In this document: piece by piece, positions 4,229-21,542 of the stretch | Position numbering within the stretch: position 1 is the first letter of the stretch | Layout of the letters: each line of letters starts with the position of its first letter | IMG/VR virus record: IMGVR_UViG_2563366943_000015 | Strand: one strand, 5' to 3' | DNA from: a virus | Lineage: Duplodnaviria > Heunggongvirae > Uroviricota > Caudoviricetes | Length of the DNA stretch: 21,542 bases | Notes under the pieces: model-generated | What the model was told of the DNA's origin: nothing | Seen by the model: only the letters and a program-made list of their open reading frames with translations | Database searches by the model: none | Made by a program: the position numbers and the translations under genes

Positions 4229-4582
4229 GCCCACAAGAAAGCCCCTCCGGAGAGGGGCTAAAGCCGCGTATCTGTATCATCATGCACATGGTGCCGGGTG
4301 CCTCCCGGTAAGTTCAGCCCGGTGCCACTAAACCCGCGTCATTCTCGTTTTGATAATCAGAGATTATACCGTCACCAGTCGCCCCTCCGCTCAGGGGGAT
4401 TCACCATGCCAGTTTCTTTTAACAAACTCCCCGCAAACCAGACAACAGTCAACCGCCTGAATTGTGAGGTATTTAAAAATTTCTCCAGATAACTGATACC
4501 CGGCTAACAGTCTGGCGTTTTCTTTTTCAGCAACGGGAAAGCAACAACCACCACACCCACCAGCCGCCAATTTACCACAAAT

Positions 4583-7011: not shown

Positions 7012-7167
7012 TTACTCCTCAGGTTCGTAAGCTGTGAAGACAGCGACCTCCGTTTGGCCGGTTCGGATTCGTACCTCGCAGAGGTCTTTCCTCGTTACCA
7101 GTGCCGTCACTATGACGGTTAAACAGATGACGATCAGGGCGATTAGCATCGCCTTTTGCTGCTTCAT
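7012..7167 (-). CDS. hok: Hok-family type I toxin (HokD/RelF-like), 51 aa
   Basis: MKQQKAMLIALIVICLTVIVTALVTRKDLCEVRIRTGQTEVAVFTAYEPEE matches Hok/Gef family from memory; RBS AAGGAG 9 nt upstream; an in-frame upstream ATG at 7224 gives a 19-codon mok-like extension. Confidence 0.85.
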   Translation of the reverse strand: MKQQKAMLIALIVICLTVIVTALVTRKDLCEVRIRTGQTEVAVFTAYEPEE

Positions 7168-7727
7168 AGCCTGCTTCTCCTTGCCTTTCGGCACGTAAGA
7201 GGCTAACCTACGTGTGTAGAGCATAGATATGGCCTCAGATTAATGTTAAGCGTCTTGCCGGACGCGTAATGTTAACTGGGGCTTTTCTCTATCTGCCTTT
7301 TGGTGTTCATGCCTGAGACAGATAGCCTCAAGCACCCGCAGTTATTCTACTTAACTAAGATTTCCCCGCAAACCGTTTTTGTCCGGCACAGTAAATATCC
7401 AACTAAACCAATGGCGTTCGCTGTATTTACCGCCAGTATTCAATGCACATGACCGCCATGAACACCCCTAAAAAAAGGGCATTTATATGTCCAAACATTA
7501 ATATCAAAACATCAATTTTTTCCATATACCTTGCTGTGAAGATGATGGGCATACATGATGCGAACAACCAGAACGCAACAAACAAAAACTGCAATGCGTT
7601 TTTCATTATTCCCCCCTACAATCAATGTGCAATAACATTTAAACACACCTCAATTTGGCCGGACATATAAATATCTAAACCAGAAAAAATCACTTACATA
7701 GCGTTACAAACTCTTTAGTCTAAATAT

Positions 7728-14401: not shown

Positions 14402-14627
14402 TGCTATGTGTAGTCTTTGGCGGCATCAGTTCTACTCCGTGGCTGCCCTGCCGCCCCTTTTTAAAGTGAATTTTGTGATGCAGTGAATGCGGCTAAGCGC
14501 ACGCGGCACAGTTAAAAGCATCAGTGTTATGGGTGGATTATCCGGCGTTAATTGTTAACTGGTTAACGTCACCTGGAGGCACCAGGCACCGCATCGACAA
14601 AATTCATTTGTAAAAATGGAGATAATT

Positions 14628-18990: not shown

Positions 18991-19197
18991 ATGACAAAAA
19001 TTATGAGATATGACGATGTTAAACCATGTCCGTTTTGTGGTTGTCCATCTGTTACGGTGAAAGCAATTTCAGGATATTACCGGGCAAAATGCAACGGATG
19101 CGAATCCCGAACTGGCTATGGTGGAAGTGAAAAAGAAGCACTCGAAAGATGGAATAAACGAACTACTGGAAATAATAATGGAGGTGTTCATGTATAA
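18991..19197 (+). CDS. ralR: Restriction-alleviation protein RalR/Lar, 68 aa
   Basis: MTKIMRYDDVKPCPFCGCPSVTVKAISGYYRAKCNGCESRTGYGGSEKEALERWNKR matches Rac RalR from memory. Confidence 0.75.
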   Translation: MTKIMRYDDVKPCPFCGCPSVTVKAISGYYRAKCNGCESRTGYGGSEKEALERWNKRTTGNNNGGVHV

Positions 19198-19378
19198 AAT
19201 TACTGCCACTATTGAAAAGGAAGGTGGCACTCCTACTAACTGGACAAGATATTCAAAATCTAAATTAACGAAATCAGAATGCGAAAAAATGCTCTCAGAA
19301 AAAAAAGAAGCAGGCGTTTCCAGAGAGCAGAAAGTAAAGCTGATAAATTTTAATTGCGAGAAACTTCTGTCCTCGTGA
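19190..19378 (+). CDS. ydaC: YdaC-like small protein, 62 aa
   Basis: MYKITATIEKEGG...; RBS GGAGG upstream; overlaps the ralR 3' end. Confidence 0.55.
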   Translation: MYKITATIEKEGGTPTNWTRYSKSKLTKSECEKMLSEKKEAGVSREQKVKLINFNCEKLLSS

Positions 19379-19478: not shown

Positions 19479-19766
19479 ATGGCAATGAATCTTGTGACAC
19501 TCAAAACGTGGGGAAAACTCAGATATCCGGATAACCCACCATCAATATCAACGCTGAGACGATGGGCAAGGAATGGAAACATTTATCCTGCACCTGAACT
19601 ACACGGGAGGAGTTACAGGGTGGTTCCGGAGGCTTTCTATATCAACCCAAATAAGGTTGATACCGATATAACACACCATCAGCCTAATGGGCGACAAGGG
19701 AGAGACAGTCCGTTACTGGAGAAGTTAAAACATGCAGCGGAAAAAATACGATCCCAATTTGCCTAA
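19479..19766 (+). CDS. xis: Excisionase-like protein, 95 aa
   Basis: Immediately upstream of int and overlapping it by 35 nt; RBS AAGAGG. Confidence 0.65.
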   Translation: MAMNLVTLKTWGKLRYPDNPPSISTLRRWARNGNIYPAPELHGRSYRVVPEAFYINPNKVDTDITHHQPNGRQGRDSPLLEKLKHAAEKIRSQFA

Positions 19767-20808
19767 AAACTTAACATATCGAAGGAGGGACAAAGCATAT
19801 TACTGGCGCAACCCTCTGACGAAAGAAGAATTTACACTAGGTAAAATTTCAAGAAGAGATGCAGTAGCGCAGGCAATTGAAGCAAATCATTATATATACA
19901 AAAACTACTCTCCTGCTGCCTTAATTGAAAAGCTTAAAGGGTTCGACTCATTTACTATGGCTGACTGGATTGAACGTTACAAAACGATTCTTATAAGGAG
20001 AAAAGTGTCCAGAAATACTTATAAAATTCGGGTAAATCAACTGGAGACAATAAAAGAAAAATTGGGGGAAATTTTACTGACAGAAATAACCACTCGCCAT
20101 ATTGCCGAGTTTCTTGATTTGTGGATTGAAGGAGGGAAAAACACAATGGCAGGATCAATGCGTTCTGTGTTGTCTGATATGTTTCGTGAGGCCATTGTTG
20201 ATGGACGTATATCTCAAAATCCAGTAACGCCAACAAGAGCACCGAAAATAGTAGTTACAAGAGAACGACTGAAACTAAAGACATACAACTGCATCAGGGA
20301 GGCAGCAGATCAACTTCCGGCATGGTTCCCATTAGCTATGGATTTAGCCCTTGTAACAGGACAACGTCGCGAAGACATAACGAATATGCGCTTTAGTGAT
20401 ATTTATGATGATCGTCTCCACATCAGGCAAATTAAGACAGGAATGATGATTGCTATCCCCCTGTCACTCAGCCTTCCTGTCGCTGGTCTACGGCTTGGTA
20501 CAGTAGTTGAACAGTGCCGCCTGGTAAGCCGGGGAGATTATCTAATCAGTGCCGGGATTAGAAAAAACAGCCCTGACGGCAGCATTCACCCGGATGGCCT
20601 GACAAAAAAATTTGTCGCAGCCAGAAAATTAACAGGTATCCAGTTCAGTGAAAACCCACCAACTTTTCACGAGATCAGAAGTCTGGCTGGACGATTGTAC
20701 AAAGAAACATGTGGAGAAGAATTTGCTCAGCGTCTACTTGGTCACACATCGGAGAAGACAACAAAAATGTATCTTGATGAGAGAGAAAAAACGTACTTAC
20801 TACTCTGA
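19732..20808 (+). CDS. int: Tyrosine integrase, lambda Int family, 358 aa
   Basis: N-terminus [25 protein letters not shown] and C-terminal catalytic region [12 protein letters not shown]...[16 protein letters not shown] parallel lambda Int. Confidence 0.9.
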
Positions 20809-20939
20809 TTTTAACGTAAATGGATTGTTAAATGTATTTTGGTTGTGATATAACCAAAAAAGACCGGAATACAGAAATTCGAGTAAATTTCGGGGAATTT
20901 CGGGAAGACGTTTGCAACTGATTGATTTTAAATACAATT

Positions 20940-21042
20940 AAAAAAAGACCGAATACGATTCCTGTATTCGGTCCAGGGAAATGGCTCTTGGGAGAGAGCC
21001 GTGCGCTAAAAGTTGGCATTAATGCAGGCTTAGTTGCCTTGC
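20940..21042 (-). ncRNA. sdsR: sRNA SdsR (RyeB)
   Basis: Minus strand reads GCAAGGCAACTAAGCCTGCATTAATGCCAAC...CCCTGGACCGAATACAGGAATCGTATTCGGTCTTTTTTT, matching the SdsR sequence as I remember it, including the terminator hairpin plus T7. Confidence 0.7.
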
Positions 21043-21132
21043 CCTTTAAGAATAGATGACGACGCCAGGTTTTCCAGTTTGCGTGCAAAATGGTCAATAA
21101 AAAGCGCGGTGGTCATCAGCTTAAATGTTAAA

Positions 21133-21170
21133 AACCGCCCGTTCTGGTGAAAGAACTGAGGCGGTTTTTT
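21133..21170. terminator. Bidirectional intrinsic terminator between ryeA and yebY
   Basis: accgcc...ggcggt interrupted stem flanked by AAAAA on the left and TTTTTTT on the right. Confidence 0.6.
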
Positions 21171-21200
21171 TATTGGAAATCAAAAGGCTATTTTAGGTAA

Positions 21201-21542
21201 TTAACAGAGTTTTTCAGCTCGCTCTATAAACGGTGCCAGACTCATTTTTTCGCCGGGATTGTTAGGATCATCAATCTGAATCACCGAAATGGGTTGGGCT
21301 TTAGTCTTCCCACTGGCAACTTCCTTTTGTGCGATATCGTTTAAAGGATACTGCACGAGGGTACTTGGGTTAATGACATACAAAGCATTACCTGGTCGGC
21401 AAGTCAGCATCACCTCTTCGCGATTAAACGCCCATTTGTCTTTACCCACTTCAAAACGGCTGACGGTAATCACCTGCGGTGCCGCCAGCGCAGCTGCAGA
21501 ACTGGTGAGTAACAGAAACGCCAGAATACTTTTTTTCATCAT
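21201..21542 (-). CDS. yebY: Host periplasmic DUF2511 protein YebY, 113 aa
   Basis: [20 protein letters not shown] signal peptide; sequence and the sdsR/ryeA neighbourhood agree with E. coli yebY from memory. The gene start coincides with the window end. Confidence 0.7.

Follow-up and report, generated by a model that had tools for sequence, protein, structure and literature searches.

The 3′ end of the small RNA gene sdsR as the probable attachment site of a Rac-like lambdoid prophage in Escherichia coli, with a comparative anatomy of its attP

In the attP site of bacteriophage lambda, the sites P′1–P′3 lie next to int, H′ lies between them and the core, and P1 and P2 are placed far out on the P arm. 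As regards the attachment site itself, the closest described counterpart of the locus considered here comes from Salmonella, where PhiW104 attaches within the last 23 bp of ryeB (sdsR), an insertion hot spot, according to the work of Balbontin (2008, J Bacteriol 190:4075) as relayed in PMC7380047 and PMC3333887. Lysogeny by PhiW104 is described in the first of these as lowering ryeA and raising ryeB, and in the form in which these accounts convey it, the end of sdsR/ryeB has been known as a phage attachment site in Salmonella since 2008. In E. coli K-12, RyeA is about 265 nt long and its promoter contains the −10 hexamer TATGGT, which Choi et al. mutated; transcribing ryeA hampers sdsR, pphA mRNA derives mainly from read-through from the sdsR promoter, and over-produced SdsR is toxic, an effect that RyeA counteracts (PMC6610125). 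An E. coli-specific description of the sdsR attachment site was not found in the literature searched, which is not proof of absence, nor was the attP anatomy of this integrase family as given below.

The DNA analysed here, referred to as the window, is a stretch of 21,542 nt from a virus of the Caudoviricetes (IMG/VR record IMGVR_UViG_2563366943_000015). It is highly probable that the window contains the attR site of an approximately 45.6-kb Rac-like lambdoid prophage, integrated in the manner of lambda into the Rho-independent terminator of sdsR. The features concerned are as follows.

19479..19766, + strand: xis, excisionase; open reading frame with a PF07825 Excisionase-like match (E 6.5e-14), annotated as excisionase in NZ_OZ547117.1
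19732..20808, + strand: int, lambda/HK022-family tyrosine integrase of 358 aa; open reading frame and Pfam domains
20845..20855, no strand: conserved block GTGATATAACC at the outer edge of the putative P′ arm
20856..20874, no strand: second copy of the sdsR end, AAAAAAGACCGGAATACAG, with an A-tract and a likeness to a core-type half-site, GACCG(G)AATAC; the overlap centre is about 93 bp away
20875..20905, + strand: three tandem units, very probably arm-type, AAATTCGAGT / AAATTTCGGGG / AATTTCGGGA; TTCG spacing of 11 and 10 bp
20915..20927, − strand: putative IHF-consensus site AATCAATCAGTTG (= WATCAANNNNTTR), the sole exact match in the 21.5-kb window on either strand
20940..20973, no strand: attR core; four-way attB/attR/attL/attP alignment, inverted repeat I6 and core matches in L002
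20947-20956, within the core: the half-site of the phage-derived part, which consists of an A-tract and C-type half-site GACCGAATAC
20957-20963, within the core: 7-bp loop and putative overlap GATTCCT
20964-20973, within the core: B′ half-site GTATTCGGTC, host-derived
20940..21042, − strand: sdsR (ryeB), intact; Rfam RF00111 at 20940-21039 (118.1 bits against a gathering threshold of 38, model positions 1-100 of 100), terminator scan and K-12 comparison
20940..21175, + strand: remaining body of ryeA/sraC with its terminator (21130-21175); RF00101, inverted repeat I7 with a T-run, and K-12 geometry
21201..21542, − strand: yebY, the first host gene past the junction; open reading frame, and the annotation under the match in all genomes

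The int reading frame runs from 19732 to a stop at 20808 on the plus strand, where the first-pass annotation of this DNA had placed the end of the gene, and xis overlaps its start from upstream. The product, which carries a tyrosine-recombinase annotation in a near-identical genome, comprises a catalytic domain (PF00589, 61.6 bits), a central phage-integrase domain (PF22022), and an N-terminal arm-binding domain (PF09003, Arm-DNA-bind_1, 28.1 bits with a cut-off of 22); it is 41% identical to the HK022 integrase and about 39% identical to integrases of the 434/HK97 type. In NZ_OZ547117.1, the prophage extends over about 45.6 kb from yebY/sdsR to pphA and combines Rac-like early genes with an apparently full late region. 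Rfam matches inside the prophage include RalA, the antitoxin of RalR (19196-19374), DicF (14405-14456), sok, beside hokD (7162-7337), and STnc100 (4229-4438), and those to RalA, sok, and DicF indicate that this Rac/Qin-like mosaic has two toxin-antitoxin systems of type I along with DicF, an sRNA inhibitor of cell division. In the distantly related ‘Flyfo siphovirus’ Tbat2_3 (L007 274-528), a homologue of the DNA polymerase III theta subunit is located directly before xis and int; host holE, encoding theta, is about 2 kb from sdsR in E. coli, a parallel that is probably a coincidence.

That a prophage is integrated at the sdsR/ryeA locus, as had been proposed from the letters of the sequence, is borne out by both junctions: host homology starts at 20939, and a matching core is present at the far prophage end beside pphA. 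A 1143-nt junction query matched all 5426 complete E. coli genomes, the match starting at query position 540 (window position 20939) in all but 228 of them. The K-12-type pphA–yebY intergenic region is uninterrupted in 5191 genomes and split in approximately 235, and this int is present in 228 of the latter. The site is thus occupied in about 4% of complete E. coli genomes, nearly always by this integrase. In one genome (H32, NZ_CM128592.1 1038172-1039499) the intergenic region is split by an IS1A element and not by a prophage. The attL site lies outside the window and was taken from NZ_OZ547117.1, which is 99.9% identical over the 1143-bp junction query; there the far junction reads AAAGAGACCGAACACGATTCC followed by phage DNA, beside pphA and 45.6 kb off. 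A second full core was sought within the window and none was found, because the partner lies beyond it. The other prophage junction does share sequence with the stretch 20856..20956 singled out in the first-pass annotation, which speaks for integration, by way of 20940-20966 and not by way of the second copy.

Alignment of attB (K-12/JM109), attR (the window), attL, and one intact attP showed that attR consists of the left part of attP and the right part of attB, and attL of the left part of attB and the right part of attP. Only ACGATTCCTGT (20955-20965) is common to all four sites, and the polymorphisms that flank it, GAAYAC on the left and GTWTTCG on the right, each segregate with their own arm, which places strand exchange inside this interval. 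The midpoint of ACGATTCCTGT falls on the 7-nt loop of the sdsR terminator, the 10-bp arms of which form a perfect inverted repeat. The terminator hairpin would be one whose arms, GACCGAAYAC and GTATTCGGTC, double as inverted core-type half-sites of a recombination core and whose loop, GATTCCT, is the probable overlap. On this geometry two core-type half-sites would surround the overlap, which could fall anywhere in 20955-20965. Excision would be expected to yield an attP made up of the P′ arm, then AAAAAAAGACCGAATACGATTCCTGT, then TTTCGTCAAC, together with an attB of the K-12 type. The core at 20940-20966 coincides with the 3′ end of the Rfam SdsR match, is internal to ryeA, and fits the definition of the Salmonella hot spot in the form given in PMC7380047.

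Integration at this position leaves the two small RNA genes in different states. The intact SdsR gene reported earlier at 20940..21042 on the minus strand is confirmed by a full-model match to RF00111 (SdsR_RyeB), and its last 17 nt or so, comprising the 3′ half of the terminator stem and the U-tract, are supplied by the phage with two base changes, host AAAAAGAGACCGAACAC becoming AAAAAAAGACCGAATAC and SdsR ending in ...GUAUUCGGUCUUUUUUU as compared with ...GUGUUCGGUCUCUUUUU in the host. Since the phage attP has its own copy of the left core half, integration rebuilds an intact sdsR. The predicted energy of the terminator stem is −15.8 kcal/mol in both the lysogen and the K-12 alleles, which differ in the U-tract (U7 versus UCUUUUU); an improved sdsR terminator stem in lysogens is ruled out by these identical predictions, and the U-tract would be the sole source of any altered SdsR termination. 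The ryeA gene, matched by RF00101 (SraC_RyeA) at 20936-21080 on the plus strand (179 bits, modelled over 145 nt), is an incomplete transcription unit in the lysogen, lacking its native sigma-70 promoter and first ~39 nt, which remain at attL. The displacement of the native ryeA promoter had been anticipated, and it follows from the K-12 arrangement, in which the −10 element and start site are about 39 nt past the sdsR 3′ end, on the pphA side.

With the sigma-70 ryeA promoter, the first ~39 nt of RyeA, and pphA placed 45.6 kb from sdsR by the insertion, RyeA would be predicted to be reduced or altered, convergent interference on sdsR to be lost, and pphA to be uncoupled from the sdsR promoter. 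The predicted shift in the RyeA/SdsR balance agrees with the lowered ryeA and raised ryeB of Salmonella PhiW104 lysogens. Given the toxicity of over-produced SdsR in K-12, its counteraction by RyeA, and the need of pphA for the sdsR promoter, these lysogens can be regarded as natural promoter-displacement mutants of the circuit, and a difference in their stationary-phase physiology is a possible consequence, by prediction.

The stretch of 131 bp that separates int from the core is very probably the P′ arm of attP. From the core outward, its elements would be an IHF site, three arm-type Int sites in phase, and a half-site that is conserved and core-like; Int would bridge arm and core sites as in lambda, through its N-terminal arm-binding, core-binding, and catalytic domains. 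Uninterrupted attP sites for comparison were available from three phage records and one viral contig (L067), the records being PP818812.1 (pPE4), Salmonella phage ZC-S1_prp, and the Flyfo siphovirus, with integrases 97.5, 73, and 50% identical, respectively, to that of the window. Another 70-odd viral contigs have junctions of the attR type, the lowest Int identity among them being 69%. A GTDB genome scan, which was left out of the comparison, returned only two close loci, one of them with a pseudogenised int and possibly error-laden sequence. The arm alignment comprised 15 diverse sequences, and block identities are mean pairwise values over eight lineages. Identity is 0.97 in the core, 0.85 in the second copy, 0.81 in the units, and 0.86 in GTGATATAACC, as against 0.56 in the spacer and 0.54 in the last 40 nt of int. 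Also between the int stop and the second copy are a conserved block ATGTTAAA around 20826-20833 and, in the 20809-20855 region, a TGaTATAAC sequence that resembles an extended −10 element but is without the final T. The putative IHF site at 20915-20927 belongs to the 34-bp spacer that divides the units from the core, the position of H′ in lambda, and its pattern YAA-N4-TTGATTT is kept in most relatives of the 15-sequence alignment while the remaining spacer diverges.

Several observations on individual relatives may be recorded here. Shigella flexneri CP182556.1 (L004 2501-3900) has the same int, P′ arm, and sdsR junction; its int contains four in-frame stops and its sdsR terminator reads AAAGACCAACATGATTCCTGTATTGGGTCC, as would be seen in a decaying prophage or with sequencing-error indels. 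The record PP818812.1 (L003), entered as ‘Actinobacillus phage vB_Apl-pPE4’, matches the E. coli prophage at 96% identity across int and the P′ arm, and has an attP core equal to the enterobacterial sdsR 3′ end; the stated host, Actinobacillus pleuropneumoniae, looks doubtful. On the P arm, L002 has a strong hairpin with a U-rich tract about 290 bp past the core, at 46365-46410 on the minus strand (−19.5 kcal/mol, z −3.4), and L003 has one at about 1500-1545 (−32.6 kcal/mol, z −5.1). The stem sequences of the two differ, position and structure are kept, and both are oriented against transcripts that run from int across attP, which is the place and orientation of lambda tI/sib. Retroregulation of int may apply, and in a lysogen such a hairpin would end the truncated RyeA′ transcript at attL.

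Next to the second copy, the first-pass annotation had noted tandem 10-mers, AATTTCGGGG/AATTTCGGGA, and suggested them as candidate arm-type Int binding sites. The repeats are present, with an end at 20905 in place of 20904, but a third, degenerate unit, AAATTCGAGT at 20875-20884 directly upstream of them, had been missed. Measured from the overlap centre, the units have their midpoints at −80, −70, and −60 in each of five attPs, and in four of the five, further units occur on the other arm at about +125 and +145; the P arm of the Flyfo phage has, by eye, only looser TTCG-type matches. The 3′ parts of the units change in concert from phage to phage, being GAGT/GGGG/GGGA in the window, GAGG in all three units of a second type, GGAA/GGAA/GGAT in a third, and GGAC in all three units of a fourth. 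Unit type also tracks Int residues 19-24: RDK occurs with GGG (including in the most distant phage), NDK or NDR with GAGG, ASK with GGAA, and SRK with GGAC, a descriptive co-variation in a small sample of nine sequences with about five unit types. As the units co-vary with the arm-binding domain of Int, the three of them and the distal P-arm units are very probably arm-type Int sites, and the original suggestion thus receives strong comparative support from phasing, concerted change, and Int co-variation, together with the PF09003 domain of Int. Int residues 19-24 (RRDKAY in the window, where Int residues 1-65 correspond to 19732-19930; relatives L064-L085 and L007) are a candidate determinant of arm specificity.

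The second copy itself is real as a partial duplicate of the sdsR end: an exact 11-mer at 20856-20866 equals 20941-20951, and over 20941-20956 the match, with one inserted G, covers 16 of 17 positions. Its local-alignment score of 27 was reached in one of 5000 shuffles of the arm and in none of 345 real 127-nt windows of the same prophage, and is therefore not attributable to chance. The first-pass annotation suggested that this copy may be a relic att core or evidence of successive integrations in this chromosome, and in favour of such a reading it matches the left core half, A-tract included, far better than chance. It lies, however, inside phage DNA and not in host DNA, host homology beginning only at 20939; the core has its true partner at the opposite end of the prophage; and the copy occupies a fixed offset in the four uninterrupted attPs (pPE4, ZC-S1_prp, L067, and Flyfo, the last with 50% Int identity) and is better conserved than its flanks. 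A scar of integration is accordingly scarcely credible, and the element is instead a conserved part of the P′ arm of attP; even an ancient duplication, fixed in the phage lineage, would by now be a maintained phage element and not the scar of an event in the host.

What this element does is approached through its pattern of conservation. The sequence AAAAAGACCG(G)AATAC is kept in every lineage, the extra G being missing in L036, L065, and Flyfo, and it does not co-vary with the arm units, staying GACCG(G)AATA across the GGGG, GAGG, GGAA, and GGAC types. A core-type-like reading is favoured because the sequence follows the invariant core half-site GACCGAATAC, as expected if it is read by the core-binding part of Int, and most likely the element would offer Int one more contact, on the outer margin of the intasome. 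The same position, one helical turn past the third unit, could also suit a fourth arm-type site in inverted orientation, whose likeness to the terminator would be a by-product of the ATTCGG shared by arm and core sites; together with unit 1 it forms an arrangement CCG(G)AAT-N6/7-ATTCGRG that is kept in all lineages, including Flyfo (CCGAAT-ATTATAA-ATTCGG). We consider this unlikely, for the copy adheres to the core half-site and not to the arm-unit specificity that tracks the Int N-domain.

Two further explanations would have the arm act outside recombination. Read on the minus strand (CUGUAUUCCGGUCUUUUUU), the second copy looks like the sdsR terminator's 3′ half followed by a U6 tract. It might be a back-up intrinsic terminator, at which read-through from sdsR would end before becoming antisense to int, and in K-12 the sdsR terminator is documented to let through a substantial share of transcripts (PMC6610125). 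The minus-strand RNA nevertheless folds no better than shuffled sequence in three phages (z = −0.60, 0.03, and −0.58), the possible stem is of 5–6 bp with a bulge, Flyfo keeps the element without the U-tract, and the terminator scan returns the sdsR terminator only. A back-up terminator was rejected on the folding and the scan, and is very improbable. The other explanation is that the arm acts as RNA, within a chimeric RyeA-like transcript that stems from a phage promoter or from int read-through, in which the second copy, as a 5′ or 3′UTR segment, pairs with the terminator or Hfq-binding end of SdsR, and by which the phage actively tunes SdsR. Any plus-strand transcript leaving int would run antisense through the whole of sdsR to the ryeA terminator, the sequence TTTGCA-16-TACAAT at 20911-20938 resembles a promoter, and a modified 5′ portion of ryeA is reported in Salmonella lysogens in the account given by PMC7380047. 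A phage promoter replacing that of ryeA was sought in the arm, and the single match found, 9/12 at 20911-20938, represents no excess over shuffles (promoter-like matches numbering 2 as against 1.6); the A/T-rich stretch at these positions is equally explained by the IHF site. There is, moreover, no Rfam or structural signal in the arm, a permissive Rfam scan of it giving noise only (all E above 2), and the fixed helical phasing and the co-variation with Int point to DNA–protein sites, so that a role as RNA appears most improbable.

The core-type-like reading of the second copy, as an extra Int contact, is the one carried forward here. To our knowledge, a core-like half-site of this kind has no established counterpart in lambda attP, and its conservation in the P′ arm is a modestly new detail. 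A broader proposition holds that the half-site is a functional element not described for lambda-type attP, either a core-type Int contact in the arm or a DNA or RNA mimic of the SdsR terminator end, and that insertion of the phage family changes the wiring of the toxin-antitoxin-like pair SdsR/RyeA, and of pphA, in about 4% of E. coli strains, through loss of the RyeA promoter and of interference and through uncoupling of pphA; this is put forward tentatively, as a possibility that we regard as rather unlikely. Of use in its own right is a comparison-backed attP anatomy of the integrase family, with its core, exchange interval, putative IHF site, about five probable arm-type sites, and one core-like site.

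Compared with described systems, the prophage resembles Rac of E. coli K-12 in its early genes (ralR/RalA, recE, recT, kilR, and ydaE-, ydaT-, ydaU-, and ydaV-like genes) and differs from it in an integration module that targets sdsR and in apparently complete late genes; Rac resides at ttcA in K-12 and has a different integrase. With the Salmonella ryeA/ryeB hot spot, in so far as the consulted accounts describe it, the locus shares an att site in the last ~23 bp of ryeB/sdsR, an intact sdsR, and replacement of the 5′ part of ryeA, and Salmonella-type Int relatives (about 73% identical) agree with it in their core and in the layout of the arms. Unlike PhiW104, the present element has an E. 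coli host and is a Rac-like mosaic (ralR/RalA, recET, kilR), and the two are likened by attachment site and not by Int family.

The likeness to lambda and HK022 extends over the arm, core, and catalytic domains of Int, a xis gene upstream that overlaps int, a P′ arm between core and int, a putative IHF site, three contiguous phased sites at ~60–80 bp with more at ~125–145 bp on the other arm, and a terminator-like hairpin past the P arm in the int-sense direction, like tI/sib. In contrast to lambda and HK022, Int is only 39–41% identical, the core and arm sequences differ, the core is the hairpin of an sRNA terminator, an extra conserved core-like half-site lies outside the third P′ unit, and more conserved blocks are present all the way to the int stop. 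Phages and islands that integrate at the 3′ ends of tRNA and tmRNA genes are alike in using a small structured RNA gene with dyad symmetry, the displaced 3′ end of which is restored by the element. The sdsR site differs from these targets in being a bidirectional sRNA locus, where restoring sdsR consequently truncates the antisense ryeA and cuts the read-through link to pphA.
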